Below are positions 56,613 to 64,000 of a stretch of 64,000 nt of DNA, piece by piece. The number at the start of each line of letters is the position of its first letter. Position 1 is the first letter of the stretch. The position numbers and the translations under genes are program-made. Origin of the DNA: Thermoanaerobaculia bacterium (GTDB taxonomy: Bacteria; Acidobacteriota; Thermoanaerobaculia; Multivoradales; JAGPDF01); the NCBI GenBank assembly GCA_018057705.1, contig JAGPDF010000016.1:5016-69015 (forward strand). The letters are read 5' to 3'. Under the pieces are notes generated by a model. It saw nothing but the letters and a program-made list of their open reading frames with translations. It was not told where the DNA came from and made no database searches.

Positions 56613-57685
56613 GCTCCCTGCTGGAGGTCCGCGGGCTCGCCAAGGAGTTTCCGATCCGTTCGGCATTCCTGCGGCGCCGGCTGGGCGCGGTGGCCGCGGT
56701 CGCGGAGGTCGACCTGGACATCGCAGCCGGCGAGACCGTCGCCCTGGTGGGGGAGTCGGGGTCGGGCAAGAGCACGCTCGGACGGATGATCGTGCGCCTG
56801 ATCGAACCGACCCGCGGCGAGATCCGCTTCCGCGGCGAGGACCTCCTCGCGCTTCCGCCCCGCGAGCTGCGACGCGCGCGCCGCCATTTCCAGGTCGTCT
56901 TCCAGGACCCGTACGGCTCGCTCAATCCGCGCATGCGGATCGGCGACGCGCTCCTCGAGCCGTTGCTCGTGCACGGCCTGGCCGCGGGCAGCGGCGCGAG
57001 CGGCGGCGAGCGGCGCGAAAAGCGCGCCCTGCAGGTGGCCGGGATGCTCGCCGAGGTCGGCATGCCGGCCGAGGCCGCGCGACGCTACCCGCACGAATTC
57101 TCCGGCGGCCAGCGCCAGCGCATCGGTATCGCCCGCGCTCTCGCCTCGCAGCCGGCGCTCCTGGTCGCGGACGAACCGGTCTCGGCGCTCGACCTGTCGG
57201 TCCGCGCCCAGATCGTCAATCTGCTCGCCAACCTGCAGCGCGATCGCGGCATCGCCATGCTGTTCATCGCCCACGATCTGGCGCTGGTCGAGCAGATCGC
57301 CGACCGGATCGCCGTGCTCTACCTCGGCCGCATCGTCGAGGAGGGCCCGGCGGCGGCGCTCCTCGCCGCGCCGCTCCACCCCTACACGGCGAGCCTCATC
57401 GCCGCCGTGCCGCGGGTGCGCGCGGCCGGCGGTCTGAGGCTCCGGCGGGTCCCCGCGGGCGAGCCCCCGAGCGCCTCGGATCCGCCCCCCGGTTGCCCCT
57501 TTCACCCGCGCTGTGCCGCCGCCACCGAGCGCTGCCGGAGCGAACGGCCCCTTCTCCTCGGGAGCGCGGGGGAGCGCAAGGTCGCCTGCCACTACCCGGG
57601 CGAGGCCGCCCTCGTTCAGCGAACGGCGCCGGAATCTCGCCCCGGCGATGGAACTTTTCTGGCCAACGGACGTAGAGAACTGTGA
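56609..57685 (+). CDS. oligopeptide/dipeptide ABC transporter ATP-binding protein (DppF/OppF-like)
   Basis: Has Walker A (GESGSGKST), the signature FSGGQRQR, and a C-terminal Opp/Dpp-type domain with Cys residues. The ATG overlaps the upstream stop. Confidence 0.8.
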   Translation: MSSLLEVRGLAKEFPIRSAFLRRRLGAVAAVAEVDLDIAAGETVALVGESGSGKSTLGRMIVRLIEPTRGEIRFRGEDLLALPPRELRRARRHFQVVFQDPYGSLNPRMRIGDALLEPLLVHGLAAGSGASGGERREKRALQVAGMLAEVGMPAEAARRYPHEFSGGQRQRIGIARALASQPALLVADEPVSALDLSVRAQIVNLLANLQRDRGIAMLFIAHDLALVEQIADRIAVLYLGRIVEEGPAAALLAAPLHPYTASLIAAVPRVRAAGGLRLRRVPAGEPPSASDPPPGCPFHPRCAAATERCRSERPLLLGSAGERKVACHYPGEAALVQRTAPESRPGDGTFLANGRREL

Positions 57686-57714
57686 CGCAAACTTCGCGAA
57701 TGGAGAGGATACGC

Positions 57715-59376
57715 ATGACGATTCGAGTGCGAGAGAAGAATAGATTGCGCCGGCAGACCGGCGCTCCGCTGGGAATGGCGCTGTTCGTCACCGCCGCAAT
57801 GATCGCCGCGGCCGTTCCGGGTACCCCGGCCGCCGCCCAGGATGCGGGCATGCCGATCACGATCGAAACCGCTATCGGACCGGAGGTCGGGATGGCCGAG
57901 CTTCGGGTCCAGGGCGAGGAGATCCACCTGACGCTCGAAGAGGCGGTGGGGCTCGCGCTCTCCCGCAACCTCAACCTGCGCACCCAGCGCTATTACCGTG
58001 AGCAGGCGACTCTCGGCATCCAGCAGGCGACCGGCATCTACGACTTCAATCTTCTCGCCGACCTCTTCACCCAGAAGATCGAGAACCCGGCGGCCTCGAA
58101 CCTCGACGGCGCCGACGTCCAGATCCAGGAGCGCTCCAGCCTCACGGTGGGCGGGTCGCAGCTCTTTCCGACCGGCGGCGTCTTCGGCGTGAGCGTCCCG
58201 AACGGGCGCTTCGAGACCAACTCGAGCTTCTCGCTGCTCAACCCGTCGTTCGACAGCGGTCTCGACTTCTCGTTCACGCAACCCCTGCTGCGCGGCTTCG
58301 GACGCTCGGCGACCGAGTACGGGATCGAAGTGGCGCGGGTCAATAGCGACCTCTCGTACCAGCAGTTCGTCTTCGAGGTCATTTCGACCATCCAGAACGT
58401 CGAGAACGCCTACTGGAATCTGGTCGCGGCGCGCTATGCGCTGACCGTCTCCGAGGAGAGCCTGAAGCTCGCCGAAGAGCTGCATTCGAACAACAAGGTG
58501 CGCGTCGACGTCGGCACGCTCGCCCCGCTCGAGCTCGTGCAGAGCGAGGCCCAGATCGCCACCCGCCAGGAGGCGATCATCCGCGCCCGGGGCGTCGTCG
58601 GCGACGCCGAGGACCTGCTCTTCTTCTACCTCAACGTCGATCAGGGCGAGGCCTGGTCGAAGACGATCGTCCCCGACACCGAGGCGATCATCGAGCATCC
58701 GCGAGTCGACCTGCAGGAGGCGATCCGCGTGGCTTTGGGCTCGCGGCCCGAGATCGTCAGCCAGCAGCTGCGCATCCAGTCGGCAACCCTCGACCAGACC
58801 TTCCTGGCGCAGGATGCCAAGCCGCGCCTCGATCTGCGCGCCACCTACGGCCTCTCGGGCCTGGGCGGCGACGTGGTGATCCGCAATCCCGACGGGTCGA
58901 TCGATACCACCATCCCCGGCGGATGGGACGACGCCTTCGAGCAGGTCACCGGTGGCGACTTCCCGGGCTGGTCGGTCGGCCTCGAGCTCGGCATCCCGAT
59001 CCAGAACCGCACCGCCCGGGCCCGCAAGGCGATCGCTGACCTCGCGGTCGAGGCCAGCAAGGACACCGCAAAGCAGCTCGAGCTGCGGGTCACGACGGAG
59101 GTCCGCGCGGCGGTGCGCGGCCTCGAGACCTCCCGTGAGCAGCTCGAGTCAGCCAAGGTCTCGACCCGGCTGGCGGAGAAGAACCTCGACGCCGAGAGGA
59201 AGAAGTACGACAACGGCCTGTCGACCGCCTACCAGATCCTGCAGGTGCAGGACGATCTGACGGCGGCGCGCTATCGCCAGGTCGCGGCGGTGACCGGGTA
59301 CCGCAAGTCGCTCGTCGAGTACAACCGGGCGACCGGGGCACTGCTCGCGAGCTCGAACGTCTCCATCGCGGACTGA
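57715..59376 (+). CDS. TolC family outer-membrane efflux protein
   Basis: The product has a signal peptide and two OEP repeats. GGAGAGGA lies 7 nt upstream of the ATG. Confidence 0.8.
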
Positions 59377-59472: not shown

Positions 59473-60201
59473 ATGAACAGTCCGGAACAGGTGGAGTCGG
59501 CGACGCCGGAGGTGAGCGCCGTGCAGTCGATCTGGGGCGTGCTGCTCGCGCCGGAGAAGACCTTTCGCGCCCTCGCCCTCCGGCCGCACTGGCTGCCGGC
59601 GCTGCTGCTGCTCGTGGCCGCGGCGCTGGCGCTCTCGGTCATCGTCACGCCGCGGCTGGACATGAAGCAGGTGATGCGCGATGCCATCGAGGACAGCGGC
59701 CAGGAGATCTCGGCGGCGCAGCTCGAGCAGCAGGTGGAGATCGCGGAGAAGTTCAAGTGGGTGGGGACGGCCTCGCAGCTCGTGCTTCAGCCGGCGGTCT
59801 ACATGCTCATGGCGGCGATCTTCCTGGTGGTCTTTCGCCTGATGGGGAGCGATATCGACTTCCGCCACAGTCTCTCGGTCGCCGTGCACGGCATGATGCC
59901 GTTCCTGCTGGCGACGCTGCTCTCGATTCCGGTGGTGATGTCGCGCGCCGAGCTCTCGATGGAGGAGGTCCAGAGCGGCGGCTTCCTGCACTCGAACCTC
60001 GCCTCGTTCGCTCCAGAGTCGGCCGGCAAGGTCCTGGTCGCCCTGCTGGGGAGCATCGATCTCTTCTCGATCTGGACGATCGCGCTGCTCGCGATCGGCT
60101 ATCGGGTGGTCGGCAAGGTGTCGAAGGCGGCCGCGCTCGGCGTCGTGATCGCCCTCTGGGCGGTGGTCGTCGCCGGGAAGGTCGGCCTTGCCGCACTCTG
60201 A
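59473..60201 (+). CDS. Yip1-family integral membrane protein
   Basis: The 242 aa product has five TM helices in a pattern typical of bacterial YIP1-domain proteins. Confidence 0.45.
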
Positions 60202-60228: not shown

Positions 60229-61500
60229 ATGAAGCGCGGGCTTCTGATCGCCGGCGGCGTCGTCGTCCTCGCGGGGATCCTGCTCGCGAGCCTCCTCTCC
60301 GGCCGCAAACAGGCGGGGGAGAAGGTCTACGTCGAGACCGCGAGCCGCCGCGAGCTCACCCAGAGCGTCAAGTCGAGCGGCCAGATCCAGCCGCGGATCA
60401 AGGTGAACATCTCGGCGCACGTGATCGGCAAGATCGAGAAGCTCTACGCCGTGGAAGGCGCCGCGATCGCCGCCGGAGCGCCGTTCCTCGAGCTCGAGCG
60501 CGAGGCGTTCCTCGCGGCGCGCGACAACGCGCGCGCTCAGCTCGCGATGTCGAAGACCGCCGAGCAGCAGGCGATCGTCTCGGCCGCCGACGAGGTCGTA
60601 CGCCTGGCGCGCGCCGAGCAACTCTCGACGCAGGGGATCGCCTCGGTCGAGGCGCTGGAGGCTGCCCGGCTGCGACGGACCTCCGCCGACCTCTCGGTGG
60701 AGCAGGCGCGCGAGGCGGTCACGCAGGCCCGGGCGATGCTCGTCAAGGCGGAGGACGATCTGCGCAAGACCACGATCTACGCGCCGCTCTCCGGCCGGGT
60801 GATCGCCCTGAACGCCGAAGTCGGCGAGGTGGTGGTCTCGGGCACGATGAACAACCCGGCCTCGGTGATCGGCACGATCGCCGACCTGTCGGAGATCCTC
60901 GCCGAGATCGACGTCGACGAGACGGAGGTCGTGCACCTCGCCACCGGACAGCGGGTGATCCTGAAGGTGGACGCGATTCCCGACCGCGAGTACACCGGCC
61001 GGGTGGTGGAGATCGGGAGCTCCGGCTACGCGAAGCCGACGCAGCCCGACGTGACCTTCTTCCAGGCGAAGGTGCTGTTCGACGCCCCGGACGACTCGTT
61101 GCGCCCGGGAATGTCGGCGCGCGCCGAGATCGAGGTCAGCACCCACGCCGACGCCCTGGCGGTTCCGATCCAGTCGGTGGTCGAGAGAAAGCCCGGCGAC
61201 GGCGATACCAAGGGCCCGGCGCGCAAGGCTCCGCCGGTATCGGTGGTCTTCGTCGTGGAGGACGGCAAAGCGAAGAGCGTGCCGGTGAAGTCGGGCATCT
61301 CCGACTCGACCGATGTCGAGATCGTCTCCGGCCTCGCCGGCGGCGAGCAGGTGATCACCGGACCGTACCGCGCGCTGCGCAAGCTCGAGGACGGCGACGC
61401 GGTGCGGGTCACGACTCCCGAGCTCGAGAAGAACGAAAGCAAGAAGGACTCCAGCGATTCCGACGATTCGGGAACCGACGACAAGGAAGAGAGCGACTGA
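60229..61500 (+). CDS. macA: efflux periplasmic adaptor (membrane fusion protein, MacA/HlyD family)
   Basis: The N-terminus has a TM anchor. The body has coiled-coil hairpin, lipoyl and beta-barrel regions ([10 protein letters not shown]), and the tail is acidic. Confidence 0.8.
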
Positions 61501-62201
61501 TGTCGATCATCGAGCTGCAGAACGTGCACAAGGTCTACGACATGGGCGCCGAGAAGGTCCATGCCCTGAACGGCGTCGATCTCACGATCGGCAAGGCCGA
61601 GTACGTGGCGATCATGGGCCCGTCGGGCAGCGGCAAGTCGACGATGATGAACCTCCTCGGCTGCCTCGACACCCCGTCGACCGGCAGCTACATTCTGAAC
61701 GGCACGGCGGTCGAGAAGCTGAACGACCAGGAGCTCGCCGCGATCCGCAACAAGGAGATCGGCTTCGTCTTCCAGACGTTCAACCTGCTCGCCCGCACGG
61801 ACGCGCTGCAGAACGTCGAGCTGCCGCTCATCTACGCCGGCGTGTCGCGCAAGGAGCGCCGCGAGCGCGCCCAGCGCGCCCTCGCGCGGGTGGGACTCAC
61901 CGACCGCTCGCACCATCTGCCGAACGAGCTCTCGGGCGGCCAGCGTCAGCGCGTAGCGATCGCCAGGGCGCTGGTGAACGACCCGTCGATCCTGCTCGCC
62001 GACGAGCCGACCGGGAACCTCGACACGGCGACGTCGACCGACATCATGAATCTCTTCGACGAGCTCCACCGCCAGGGGAACACGGTGATCCTGGTGACGC
62101 ACGAGCCGGACATCGCCGCCCACGCCGACCGCAAGATCGTCCTGCGCGACGGCAAGGTGCAGTCGGACGTTCGCGAGCCCGCGCGGGCCGCGGCGGTCTG
62201 A
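61500..62201 (+). CDS. macB: MacB/LolD-type ABC transporter ATP-binding protein (stand-alone NBD)
   Basis: Has Walker A (GPSGSGKST), the signature LSGGQRQR and Walker B ([12 protein letters not shown]). Its start overlaps the macA stop (ATGA-like). Confidence 0.85.
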
Positions 62202-62231
62202 GGCTCCGTAAGGGAGAGGGCGCGGACTTTC

Positions 62232-62489
62232 GAGGCCATCGAGCTACCCTGAACCCATCGAGCTATCCGAGCCAGCCGAGGTAACTGAGCTATCCGAGCC
62301 AGCCGAGGTAACTGAGCCATCCGAGCCATCCGAGCCATAGGAGCCATCCGCCCTATCCGAGCCACCAGAGCTATCTGAGCTACCTGAGCGATCCGAGCCA
62401 TCAGAGCCAGCCGAGGTAACTGAGCCATCCGAGCCACTAGAGCCACCCAAGCCCTTCGAGCTACCCGAGCCAGCCGAGTCATCTGAGCC
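62232..62489. repeat. tandem array of a 9 bp repeat (consensus GAGCCATCC / GAGCTATCC / GAGCCAGCC / GAGGTAACT), about 28 copies
   Basis: The 9 bp periodicity holds from 62232 to the permease ATG at 62490. Higher-order 27 bp units (GAGCTATCCGAGCCAGCCGAGGTAACT) recur three times. The array contains in-frame stop codons on the plus strand. Confidence 0.8.
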
Positions 62490-63716
62490 ATGGTCGTCTC
62501 CGAGAACATCCGCATCGCCTTTCGCGCCCTGCGCGCCAACAAGATGCGCTCGATGCTGACGACGCTCGGCATCATCATCGGCGTGGCGGCGGTGATCGCG
62601 GTGGTCTCGATCGTCCAGGGCCTGCAGTTCATGATCACGAAGGAGCTCCAGGGGGTCGGAGCGACGTACGTGATGGTGCTGCCGAAGGTGGAACAGAATC
62701 AGGGTCCCGGGGTCCTCGCCCGTCAGGTGAAGCTCACCTGGGATGACGGGCAGGCGATCCGCGACCGCATCTCCGGTATCCGCCTCATCACCCCGCTCAT
62801 CGCCGCGCCGGCGCAGCTCGTGAAGTACGGCGAGCGCCAGCACACGGTGCAGTATCTCTTCGGCGTCTCGCAGGACTGGCCGGAGGTGAACAACCACGAG
62901 GTGGACCAGGGGCGGTTCTTCTCGCGGGTGGACATGGTGCACCGGCGGAAGGTCGCGGTGATCGGCCAGAAGGTGGCGGAGGAGCTGGGCCTCACGGATC
63001 CGGTCGGCAAGGAGGTCTACGTCGGCTCGCTGCCGGTCTCGATCATCGGCGTGATGGAGAAGCGCGGCCAGGCGCTCGGCCAGAACATGGACGACCTGGT
63101 CTTCATCCCGTTCGACACGGCGGTGAATCTGCTCGGCCGCTCGGCCGGCGACCAGATCCAGTTGCGGCTCCAGGCCGTCGACGCCGCCTCGGTGGATCAG
63201 GTGAAGGACGGCATCACGCAGCTCCTGCGCCAGCGCCACAAGATCGCCGAAGGCCAGCCGAACGACTTCGACGTCATGCTGCAGGACGAGATCCTGAAAT
63301 CCGTCGGCTCGATCCTCGGCATGATCACCACGGTAATCGGCGCCGTCGTCGGCGTCGCCCTCCTCGTCGGCGGCATCGGCATCATGAACATCATGCTGGT
63401 CTCCGTGACGGAGCGCACCCGAGAGATCGGCGTCCGCAAAGCCGTTGGCGCCAGACGCCAGGACATCCTCGTCCAGTTCATGATCGAAGCCGTCACCCTG
63501 AGCCTGGTAGGAGGCGGCATAGGTCTCGCGGCAGGCTGGGGCCTCGGCGCCCTAGTCTCCTCCCTCCTCCCCGGCGACTGGCCCCCCGCCCACGTCCCCT
63601 TCTGGGCCATCCTCATCGCCGTCGGCTTCAGCGCCGTGGTCGGGATCTTCTTCGGGATCTATCCGGCGGGGAAGGCCAGTCGTCTCGATCCGATCGACGC
63701 GTTGCGGTACGAGTAG
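62490..63716 (+). CDS. MacB-type ABC transporter permease (FtsX-like, with periplasmic MacB_PCD)
   Basis: The N-terminus MRSMLTTLGIIIGVAAVIAVVSI forms TM1. A ~230 aa periplasmic domain follows, and a C-terminal FtsX 3-TM bundle contains GIGIMNIMLVSVTERTREIG. Confidence 0.85.
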   Translation: MVVSENIRIAFRALRANKMRSMLTTLGIIIGVAAVIAVVSIVQGLQFMITKELQGVGATYVMVLPKVEQNQGPGVLARQVKLTWDDGQAIRDRISGIRLITPLIAAPAQLVKYGERQHTVQYLFGVSQDWPEVNNHEVDQGRFFSRVDMVHRRKVAVIGQKVAEELGLTDPVGKEVYVGSLPVSIIGVMEKRGQALGQNMDDLVFIPFDTAVNLLGRSAGDQIQLRLQAVDAASVDQVKDGITQLLRQRHKIAEGQPNDFDVMLQDEILKSVGSILGMITTVIGAVVGVALLVGGIGIMNIMLVSVTERTREIGVRKAVGARRQDILVQFMIEAVTLSLVGGGIGLAAGWGLGALVSSLLPGDWPPAHVPFWAILIAVGFSAVVGIFFGIYPAGKASRLDPIDALRYE

Positions 63717-63729
63717 GGAACTCGCCAAG

Positions 63730-64000
63730 GTGCCGACGCTCCGCAAAGCGATCTCGGACCGCCTCCGCGCCAGAGGCTTCCGACGTATCGACGGCGGCAA
63801 GCACCTGCTGACGCTCGACCCGGAGTGGTCGCTCTACGTCGACACCGGCACGCTCGGCACGGCGACAGGGATCGCCCCCTGGGTAGGACTGCGCAGCGAA
63901 GCGATCGAGTCCGCCCGCGCCGAGCTGATGAAGGTTCCGAGTTTCCCCGGAAGCGCGACGGTCTCCTCGAACGTCGGCTATGTCCTCGACGGCACCTACC
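63730..64000 (+). CDS. hypothetical protein, 5' fragment (continues past window end)
   Basis: The reading frame stays open from a GTG 11 nt after the permease stop to the window end, and I found no recognizable motif. Confidence 0.3.
   Translation, partial: MPTLRKAISDRLRARGFRRIDGGKHLLTLDPEWSLYVDTGTLGTATGIAPWVGLRSEAIESARAELMKVPSFPGSATVSSNVGYVLDGTY

Follow-up and report, generated by a model that had tools for sequence, protein, structure and literature searches.

Separate genes for the nucleotide-binding domain (NBD) and the permease are found in ABC systems of the LolCDE, FtsEX and YknYZ style, and E. coli MacB is a fused protein. In the split MacB-type (type VII) exporter family the two genes normally overlap or lie less than 30 nt apart; at the locus described here they are 288 nt apart, and a tandem repeat occupies most of the spacer between them. 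MIRU repeats, which have units of about 40–100 bp, are one point of comparison for such an arrangement. They are dispersed at many loci, and a small ORF in each of them is coupled at -4 nt to the gene that follows, with the result that expression is preserved (PMC12548453). Between +50 and +350 nt, coupling efficiency itself declines gradually (PMC12548453). The high-GC Burkholderia pseudomallei typically has intergenic VNTRs of 6–9 bp (PMC1853098), and TAACTGA heptamer arrays lie upstream of start codons in Beggiatoaceae, Cyanobacteria and Bacteroidetes, at >100 loci per genome (PMC4679880). SSR contingency loci consist of perfect 1–7 nt repeats, with high-frequency switching of reading frame, promoter spacing or a defined UTR element.

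We have analyzed the spacer in a 64,000-nt stretch of DNA, referred to here as the window, for which a sequence-only reading had proposed either an expression switch or the scar of a split macB gene. We interpret the array, with moderate confidence, as a near-neutral, degenerate 9-nt minisatellite (VNTR) generated by slippage or recombination in an intercistronic spacer. The main value of the analysis is a correction: the picture of a split MacB with its halves 96 codons apart in the same frame is a coincidence of one allele.

The efflux operon and its repeat array

The locus is a tolC-yip1-macA-NBD-permease efflux operon from an uncultured wastewater member of the Thermoanaerobaculia (Acidobacteriota). 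Its features, in window coordinates, are the following.

57682–59376, + strand: outer-membrane efflux protein gene (TolC-like), first in the operon (Pfam OEP, E 1.6e-38; ORF list; start codon predicted)
59473–60201, + strand: Yip1-domain membrane protein gene, between the OMP and MFP genes (Pfam Yip1, E 5e-18)
60229–61500, + strand: membrane-fusion adaptor gene, HlyD/MacA-like (Pfam HlyD_D23/HlyD_3; sequence)
61500–62201, + strand: ABC ATPase (NBD) gene, 233 aa, stop TGA at 62199–62201 (Pfam ABC_tran, E 3.3e-33)
62202–62231, + strand: non-repeat head of the spacer, 30 nt, strongly divergent between alleles (allele comparison)
62232–62259, + strand: three degenerate units, GAGGCCATC, GAGCTACCCT (10 nt) and GAACCCATC, of 9, 10 and 9 nt (unit reading)
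62260–62493, + strand: 26 units in perfect 9-nt register with no indel, consensus GAGCCATCC (TRF, unit reading)
62260–62313, + strand: perfect tandem duplication of a 27-nt three-unit block, GAGCTATCCGAGCCAGCCGAGGTAACT x2 (unit list)
62490–63716, + strand: MacB-type permease gene, 408 aa (Pfam MacB_PCD, E 9e-41; FtsX, E 3.2e-24)

The gene ends given by the sequence-only reading are correct: the NBD gene stops at 62201, the permease gene starts at 62490, and the gap (62202–62489) is 288 nt. The TGA of the adaptor (MFP) gene overlaps the ATG of the NBD gene by 1 nt. When upstream sequences were compared, we observed that GGAG/AGGA-like motifs precede the other operon genes, unlike the permease gene, whose ATG has no Shine-Dalgarno-like motif (no GGAG or AGGA) upstream of it. 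The permease start, ATGGTCGTC(A/T)CCGAGAA, is kept in nearly all close relatives; at loci L225–L227 (P0011) the permease begins GTGGAC, unlike in the other close relatives.

As had been described, the repeats extend to the permease start, and the last unit, GAGCCATGG, holds the ATG (62490–62492). The earlier figure of ~28 copies was a near estimate, the actual total being 29 (26 in register plus the 3 degenerate units). TRF placed the array at 62255–62491, with a period of 9, 26.4 copies, 68% matches, 0% indels and a score of 166, every other array that it reported in the 64 kb having 7.3 copies or fewer. The longest perfect stretches within the array are 2.8 units, plus the one twofold 27-nt duplication. 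No inverted repeats were found in it, nor stem-loop palindromes of the REP/BIME type. The sequence TAACTGA is present in three units (GAGGTAACTGAGC), probably by chance.

The array greatly exceeds what chance would give. In a 14-mer search that allowed ≤2 mismatches there were 17 matches, 12 of which are in the array, against 2.5 expected; 17 matches were reached in no shuffle, and a three-unit pattern had zero matches in all shuffles. An assembly artefact is ruled out by identical sequence in independent assemblies, the same 288-nt spacer being present in GCA_020054605.1 and GCA_020049675.1; three further assemblies contain it in part. The 10-nt unit is also real, because the same bases occur in two independent short-read assemblies (L005 and L006). 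Among the assembled contigs 7/11 end within the array, which is compatible with length heterogeneity within a sample; by way of such heterogeneity, the contig ends could reflect faster dynamics than we have assumed. Short-read assemblies of this locus break at the array, which makes it a possible strain marker for this wastewater population.

Array length and origin among close strains

Twelve contigs encode an NBD protein identical to that of the window. Among loci with this protein, L002 and L007 have the 288-nt spacer of 29 units, L008 has a 206-nt spacer of 20 units, L004 has a third spacer arrangement, and L003 is without the array, its 37-nt spacer reading TGA-TCTCCGACCGGGCGGCAGGCTGACCCCTTCGAGGCCC-ATGG. 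Arrays of 0, 20 and 29 units are carried by strains that are 98.3–100% identical over the adjacent NBD gene. Unit-by-unit alignment of the window and L008 alleles gave 9 unit indels and 11/180 substitutions, and their flanks differ at 0/702 positions in the NBD gene, 3/797 in the MFP part and 10/558 in the permease part (9 synonymous). L003 differs from the window at 12/702 positions in the NBD gene and 18/1271 in the MFP gene. By this cross-strain comparison of copy number, which the sequence-only reading had suggested, spacer lengths do differ (288, 206 and 37 nt, and the third variant), and the idea of an expandable tract was borne out by 0, 20 or 29 units and a further variant in near-identical strains. 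The locus shows both properties of a VNTR or minisatellite, namely short tandem units beyond chance and a unit number that varies between strains at one locus.

As judged from the alleles, the array evidently grew in situ from the sequence adjoining the start codon (…TTCGAGGCC(C)ATGG). The first unit, GAGGCCATC, is matched in the array-less allele by the sequence leading into its start codon, TTCGAGGCC(C)ATGG, and the first and last units bracket what is one copy in L003. Single GAGCC motifs are seen in the spacers of relatives: L228 (…GAGCCCGAGCC-ATG), L092 (GAGCCAACC), L223 (GAGCCCATC) and L098 (GAGCCAGCG). Probably, the array was born by repeated slipped-strand or unequal-recombination duplication of the ~9 nt before and including the permease start codon (GAG(G)CC-ATG-G). 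The 27-nt block duplication shows growth by multi-unit duplication, and later growth took place partly by such blocks of three units; two thirds of the block is seen again at 62404–62421, and the extra units of the duplication are missing from the L008 allele. Recombination between strains probably shuffles the array as well. The units are ~30% diverged from one another, whereas the array-less strain is only ~1.5% diverged in flanking genes, and the array, instead of being young, may have a long history with repeated collapses; that it has persisted could point to some advantage. Change in the array would occur on a between-strain timescale, not as rapid on/off phase switching. The 0/20/29 series with identical neighbouring genes presents the birth of a minisatellite from start-codon sequence, inside an operon of a family coupled at -4 nt.

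Alternative explanations and consequences for permease expression

The proposal that an insertion into an ancestrally fused macB (NBD-TMD) left the array as its scar drew on the window allele, in which the stop and the permease ATG share one phase (both positions 0 mod 3) and are exactly 96 codons apart, and on the fused MacB of E. coli. We give it next to no credence. The array-less L003 allele still has the TGA stop codon, a 37-nt spacer and a separate ATG of its own, and the 206-nt array allele is out of frame; the shared frame is true of the window allele but meaningless, a coincidence, because the 206 and 37 nt of other alleles are not multiples of 3. Comparison with orthologous loci, as the sequence-only reading had advised, found the genes split in all alleles, close relatives and distant loci compared, and no fusion. 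Eleven relatives at 85–95% permease identity have separate genes with spacers of 27–59 nt, the best 120 permease homologues are stand-alone proteins of 301–409 aa without an ABC domain, and of the distant loci listed that have an NBD gene immediately before the permease gene, 67/67 are split, most commonly with a -4 ATGA overlap. The distant loci, which served as a background for gap length, are permease relatives at ≤50% identity on metagenome contigs; the gap is ≤29 nt in 57/67 of those listed, and 30 of those 57 have the -4 overlap. The metagenome-contig permease matches listed comprised only such relatives (≤50% identity), with no alleles of the locus among them. The split of a fused macB is refuted by the array-less allele together with the relatives, and the premise of a usually fused MacB fails in this lineage, where the split architecture is the norm.

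It is also extremely unlikely that the repeat is coding, either as an acidic (E-P-S)n tail or linker reached through readthrough of the NBD stop, or as (G-S-D)n or (M-A-R)n from the minus strand. The GAG frame of L008 has the same phase as the NBD stop and stays open across the whole array; two minus-strand frames are open in the window, in agreement with the open minus strand reported earlier; and at L207, from another Thermoanaerobaculia MAG, GAGCCATCG x5 encodes (MAP)5 after a signal peptide. Against these observations, all three plus-strand frames of the window contain stops, and the GAG frame is broken there by the 10-nt unit, TGA and TAG, just as the sequence-only reading had stated in calling this strand untranslatable. 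GC3 of the array is 0.53–0.76 in its three phases, versus 0.90–0.96 in the operon genes, and the least variable unit positions are the third-codon positions of the GAG frame. Minus-strand ORFs would be antisense to the NBD or permease genes, and gene callers reported none there. We conclude that the array is non-coding and translated in no frame, because of the plus-strand stops, a frame relation that is unconserved between alleles, and the low GC3; coding in each of the six phases was rejected on these grounds. Binding of a regulator to the repeats, which we consider very unlikely, would be in keeping with an array of direct repeats reaching a start codon without a canonical RBS, with a core (G1A2G3..A6) that looks conserved within the array, with short arrays of 4–6 units of GAGC[CG]A[CT]C[GC] at eight Thermoanaerobaculia MAG loci among the matches listed, and, by analogy, with the TAACTGA arrays (PMC4679880). 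Within the array, variable bases do cluster at unit positions 5, 7 and 9 (chi-square p 0.007). Of the substitutions between alleles, however, 5/11 fall at positions 1, 2, 3 and 6, where 4.9 are expected if uniform, and these core substitutions exceed the prediction of the within-array profile (p 0.008). The GAG..A core was rejected as a binding motif, since recent substitutions do not spare it; the comparison showed an array sequence that appears to change at about the neutral rate, ignoring the apparent core. Moreover, the 64 kb contain a single such array, the closest strains and relatives are without it, and the short arrays listed elsewhere lie for the most part within coding regions or at their edges, none of them at a macB locus. 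A genome-contig scan for GAGCNANCN x3 followed by GAGC gave at least 120 loci, mostly coding low-complexity sequence (collagen-like, EP and MAP linkers), with no macB-associated or comparable non-coding array among the matches listed; 8 of the 120 loci listed are from Thermoanaerobaculia, which is not to be read as enrichment.

As for the RNA, no promoter or terminator was predicted in a scan of the spacer, and an Rfam scan of 61000–64000 (E ≤1) gave nothing relevant. None of the composition-matched shuffles folds as poorly as the spacer RNA (z +2.66 for the window, +2.79 for L008), low structure being an automatic by-product of a direct repeat with a non-self-complementary unit. The plus strand of the spacer has no ATG, GTG or TTG in 288 nt (0/2000 shuffles, in a test confounded by the repeat nature of the array); we claim no selection for this property, because by our own count only 2/27 single substitutions of the consensus unit create a start codon. 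A rut region would be an untranslated stretch of at least 80 nt with C > G and little structure; the spacer is untranslated, unstructured and richer in C (0.37) than in G (0.25). Yet the mean C/G of the array (1.43) is exceeded by ~8% of the 78-nt windows in the 64 kb (92nd percentile), and the array is not a conspicuous rut-like region; with C/G only modestly high, we keep Rho as a conjecture. Partition-function unpaired probabilities at the ATG of eight alleles did not differ consistently between array and array-less alleles, and the notion that the array opens the start codon is unsupported, accessibility being alike with or without it.

The phase-variable switch put forward by the sequence-only reading did not hold up, the units having 68% matches and a period that is a multiple of 3, with no ORF or predicted promoter and with neutral-like change. 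There is neither a near-perfect tract nor an ORF or predicted promoter in which a 9-nt step would shift the frame or the -35/-10 spacing, and at the sequence level we see no evidence of a fast phase switch. An adaptive, copy-number-tunable rheostat, in which a selected array length would set the permease:ATPase ratio or silence the pump through a changed termination-reinitiation distance and/or Rho-dependent polarity over a long, unstructured, C-rich untranslated RNA, is a doubtful reading with several observations in its favor. Copy number varies between near-identical strains, many contigs break inside the array, and the array adjoins an ATG without the Shine-Dalgarno-like motif of the other operon genes. 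The 288-nt spacer is free of start codons, its RNA is less folded than every shuffle and has C > G, and tight -4 nt coupling is the family norm, so that a 288-nt gap should matter (PMC12548453). On the other hand, the degeneracy of the units should slow slippage, changes between alleles look neutral, the C/G bias is unexceptional, start-site accessibility is unchanged, and the array is confined to one shallow sublineage, at least 11 relatives doing without it. Stated in full, a naturally evolved "length rheostat" would have arisen from the duplicated ribosome-binding/start region of the permease, its copy number setting the passage of ribosomes and RNA polymerase from ATPase to permease by loss of termination-reinitiation plus Rho polarity; we regard this version as rather improbable. 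If it were true, activated-sludge strains would show heritable, reversible differences in the stoichiometry or activity of the efflux pump.

We favor the passive minisatellite, which is probably near-neutral with respect to selection. The array would be carried on the operon mRNA, and its main effect would be a passive one, the stop-to-start distance being lengthened from ~30–60 nt, or from -4 nt in most of the wider family, to 206–288 nt of RNA expected to be untranslated, poorly folded, start-codon-free and richer in C than G. A longer spacer would make termination-reinitiation coupling weaker and perhaps expose the transcript to Rho, and more copies would then mean somewhat lower permease output relative to the ATPase. 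Judged from these features, the array probably weakens translational coupling of the permease, and permease translation or polarity may respond to length in a graded way. If permease expression does scale with array length, the natural series offers a ready test of intercistronic distance, coupling and polarity in an Acidobacterium.

Comparison with known repeat systems and exporters

The genes that flank the array resemble those of other split MacB-type exporters, being an ordinary split NBD and MacB_PCD/FtsX permease with MFP and OMP partners. With SSR contingency loci (Haemophilus, Neisseria; a 5'-UTR case is described in PMC12721329) the array shares an untranslated tract just upstream of a gene, the length of which could alter expression; it differs from them in being degenerate, with a period of 9 and no ORF or promoter, and in that variation is seen only between strains. 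MIRUs are also different, since the present array is at a single locus in the 64 kb and its 9-nt units contain no ATG, GTG or TTG and no ORF, all plus-strand frames having stops.

The TAACTGA arrays (PMC4679880) are likewise direct repeats of up to tens of copies that lie a few nt from start codons without a canonical RBS, with a suspected translational role, and in the array described here the last unit contains the ATG with no GGAG or AGGA upstream. The unit and period are different, and the array is at a single locus in the 64-kb window, with only short arrays among the genome-contig matches listed, rather than forming a network at many start codons. In the aggregate, the array is an ordinary kind of bacterial repeat. 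As in VNTRs of the B. pseudomallei type (PMC1853098), short head-to-tail units are located in an intergenic region near an ORF start, vary in number between strains and have no demonstrated phenotype. Compared with these VNTRs, the present array is longer (29 versus typically 4–10 units) and more degenerate (68% matches), and it is situated within an operon, between two subunit genes of one transporter, where its last unit supplies the start codon.

The repeat array and its surroundings

The efflux operon at the 3' end of the window, whose permease is attributed in sources to Thermoanaerobaculia bacterium (Acidobacteriota), consists of the following features.

57682-59376, plus strand: outer-membrane efflux (OEP)/TolC-like gene
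59473-60201, plus strand: Yip1-domain membrane protein gene, between the OEP and membrane-fusion (MFP) genes
60229-61500, plus strand: HlyD-type membrane-fusion gene
61500-62201, plus strand: ABC ATPase (NBD) gene, overlapping the MFP stop by 1 nt
62202-62489, plus strand: NBD-permease spacer, exactly 288 nt
62490-63716, plus strand: MacB_PCD+FtsX permease gene

The Yip1-domain gene is also conserved in the close relatives; most related contigs originate from wastewater metagenomes.

The sole large tandem array that TRF detected within the 64-kb window lies at 62255-62491 (period 9, 26.4 copies, 68% matches, 0 indels). Read in register, it comprises 26 units (62260-62493) with the consensus GAGCCATCC, the final one of which, GAGCCATGG, provides the permease ATG; three further degenerate units, one of them 10 nt long, lie upstream at 62232-62259. 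A three-unit block of 27 nt is perfectly duplicated at 62260-62313, which shows that the array also grows by multi-unit steps. No inverted repeats were found in the array, and a 14-mer of the unit gave 17 matches with up to 2 mismatches (2.5 expected), 12 of them inside the array. The sequence TAACTGA occurs inside three units (GAGGTAACTGAGC; 62281-62287, 62308-62314 and 62416-62422). In Beggiatoaceae and cyanobacteria, pre-start arrays are built from the same heptamer (PMC4679880); its occurrence here, where there is no 7-nt-period repetition, is probably due to chance.

Judged from its sequence, the array is non-coding. Stops are present in all 3 plus-strand frames. The phase that reads GAG as a codon (E-P-S...) is open, in phase with the NBD stop, in the 206-nt allele of contig L008; in the window the 10-nt unit, one TGA and one TAG interrupt it. 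GC3 by phase was 0.56, 0.76 and 0.53 in the array versus 0.90-0.96 in the five operon genes, and unit positions 3 and 6, which vary least, would be third-codon positions in the GAG frame. The open minus-strand frames are parts of long ORFs that run opposite to the NBD and permease genes, such antisense ORFs being typical of 69% GC DNA, and no gene caller reported a minus-strand gene at the array. The sequence-only reading had described the coordinates, the 288-nt length, the shared frame of the flanking genes, the plus-strand stops, one 10-nt unit and two open minus frames; all of these were confirmed. That observation is real and accurately described, and its interpretation was partly right.

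Alleles of the spacer and the split gene arrangement

Identical NBD proteins are encoded by 12 contigs. The complete 288-nt spacer recurs unchanged in a second assembly (L007), and three more (L005, L006 and L097) contain partial copies of it; because these assemblies are independent, an artefact of assembly is ruled out as the source of the array or its 10-nt unit. The L008 NBD gene shows 0/702 differences from that of the window, and its spacer of 206 nt contains 20 units, while in a third variant, L004, 1 unit is absent and 2 are exchanged. Contig L003, which differs from the window at 12 of 702 NBD positions (all silent, the protein being identical) and at 18 of 1271 positions in the MFP gene, is without any array, and its 37-nt spacer reads TGA-TCTCCGACCGGGCGGCAGGCTGACCCCTTCGAGGCCC-ATGGTCGTC. 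Copy number is accordingly heterogeneous among near-identical strains (0, 20 and 29 units, plus the L004 variant), as expected from the earlier proposal of an expandable array. Termination within the array of 7 of 11 contigs is compatible with, although not proof of, co-existing length variants in the samples. The main value of the finding is this natural 0/20/29-unit allele series at a junction that is normally tightly coupled.

The left edge of the array, GAGGCCATC, and its right edge, GAGCCATGG, both have their counterpart in the single GAGGCC(C)ATGG of L003, which argues that the array expanded in place from sequence adjoining the start codon. Spacers of relatives at 85-95% permease identity are 27-59 nt long, very variable in sequence and devoid of a Shine-Dalgarno motif; many relatives' spacers contain a single GAGCC(A/C)NC motif (L228, ...GAGCCCGAGCC-ATG; L092, GAGCCAACC; L223, GAGCCCATC; L098, GAGCCAGCG). 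At the same site, directly 5' of the ATG, L095:1442-1500 (GCA_043737505.1) has a different mini-repeat, CCCCTAGA x3, and L023:865-943 has GCTTGAAG-type repeats, unrelated to the window array, at this junction. These unrelated mini-repeats suggest that the spacer is generally slippage-prone. A distant homologous operon, L012:1997-2491 (Ga0070682_100000001), has a 495-nt spacer with an inserted 23S_rRNA_IVP ORF (PF05635, E 9e-32; four-helix-bundle) flanked by inverted short GTGCTGAGT-type repeats, and similar inverted GTGAGTT/AACTCAC repeats are present without an ORF at L075:2374-2482; the junction thus appears to be a landing site or hot spot for repeat elements of other kinds as well.

The array had also been considered a possible scar from the splitting of a fused macB, on the premise that MacB is normally one protein. 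This is true of E. coli MacB, but here the split is the norm: the best 120 permease homologues are proteins of 301-409 aa with MacB_PCD/FtsX domains only, and among the matches listed an NBD gene lies directly upstream in 67 of 80 distant loci, with an in-frame fusion in none of those 67. The gaps in these 67 listed loci include a -4 ATGA overlap in 30 and are at most 29 nt in 57; only 3 exceed 288 nt, and the one inspected holds an inserted ORF. It is the gap length, and not the split, that is unusual at the window locus. NBD and permease are two independent cistrons whether the array is present or, as in L003, missing, and the idea that it broke up a fused macB is thus wrong. Neither 206 nor 37 is divisible by 3, so that the 96 codons in the same frame, to which meaning had been attached, are a coincidence of one allele.

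Divergence of the array and its possible effect on expression

Aligned unit by unit, the window and L008 arrays differ by 9 unit indels and, over the 180 nt that align, by 11 substitutions (6.1%). The two permease genes show 10 differences (9 synonymous), all within gene nt 95-287 (62584-62776), and none in nt 288-558. With the NBD side identical and the permease differences so confined, the array looks as if it lies within a recombination patch, and its divergence is about that of the adjoining silent sites. Units of the array vary chiefly at positions 5, 7 and 9 (p 0.007 on the 16 distinct types), so that a GAG..A core seems to be conserved. In the comparison between alleles, 5 of the 11 substitutions fell at positions 1, 2, 3 and 6, against 4.9 under uniformity; the within-array profile predicts fewer (p 0.008). 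The GAG..A pattern, which these substitutions do not avoid, is therefore a trace of the particular founder variants that underwent amplification rather than of ongoing constraint.

Searches of the spacer for promoters, terminators and Rfam families found none, and the 288 nt contain no ATG, GTG or TTG. The permease ATG is without an SD-like motif, which the other operon genes have. The spacer is richer in C (0.37) than in G (0.25) or A (0.25), but the array C/G ratio is attained by 8% of all 78-nt segments of the 64 kb. The spacer RNA folds less than every composition-matched shuffle (z +2.66 for the window, +2.79 for L008); such weak folding is expected of any direct repeat with a non-self-complementary unit. 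Predicted start-site accessibility showed no difference between alleles. Nothing points to a fast on/off switch, and the functional switch suggested earlier is unsupported, there being no perfect tract and no frame or promoter effect. Most defensible, as a mechanistic inference, is a passive effect of length, because translational coupling works best over short distances and, in one study, fell off gradually between +50 and +350 nt (PMC12548453, review). The array would lengthen the untranslated gap; this would weaken termination-reinitiation and perhaps allow more Rho access, and permease output per ATPase would become somewhat lower as unit number rises.

Relation to known repeat systems

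A scan for three consecutive GAGCNANCN units, with one genome per species, gave at least 8 Thermoanaerobaculia loci with short arrays (4-6 units) among the matches listed, mostly inside or adjoining coding low-complexity sequence; none of the listed matches was at a macB locus or of comparable size. In L207 (CAVRCL010000012.1, a Thermoanaerobaculia MAG), GAGCCATCG x5 on the minus strand, ~135 nt from the end, reads on the opposite strand as (MAP)5 immediately following an N-terminus that resembles a signal peptide, so that nearly the same 9-mer serves elsewhere in the class as a coding low-complexity linker. Short intergenic arrays with a 9-nt unit, placed directly after a stop codon, were observed in a Gemmatimonadota MAG (L175 ~5275, JBDTUA010000049.1; GAGCGACCC x4 then GAGGTCCGC x3) and a Thermoanaerobaculia MAG (L152 ~1563; GAGCGATCG x3 then an inverted copy). 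Slippage arrays of 9 nt at gene ends seem to be recurrent in these high-GC soil/sludge phyla.

The window array differs from phase-variable SSRs in having no perfect tract and no frame or promoter effect, from MIRUs in having no ORF and not being dispersed within the 64 kb, and from REP elements in having no palindromes; with the TAACTGA pre-start arrays it has only position in common. It has both defining features of a VNTR/minisatellite, and is a modest-interest example of this already known kind of repeat. Intergenic VNTRs of 6-9 bp dominate in high-GC Burkholderia pseudomallei (PMC1853098), and these are similar to the window array, but the latter is longer and more degenerate.
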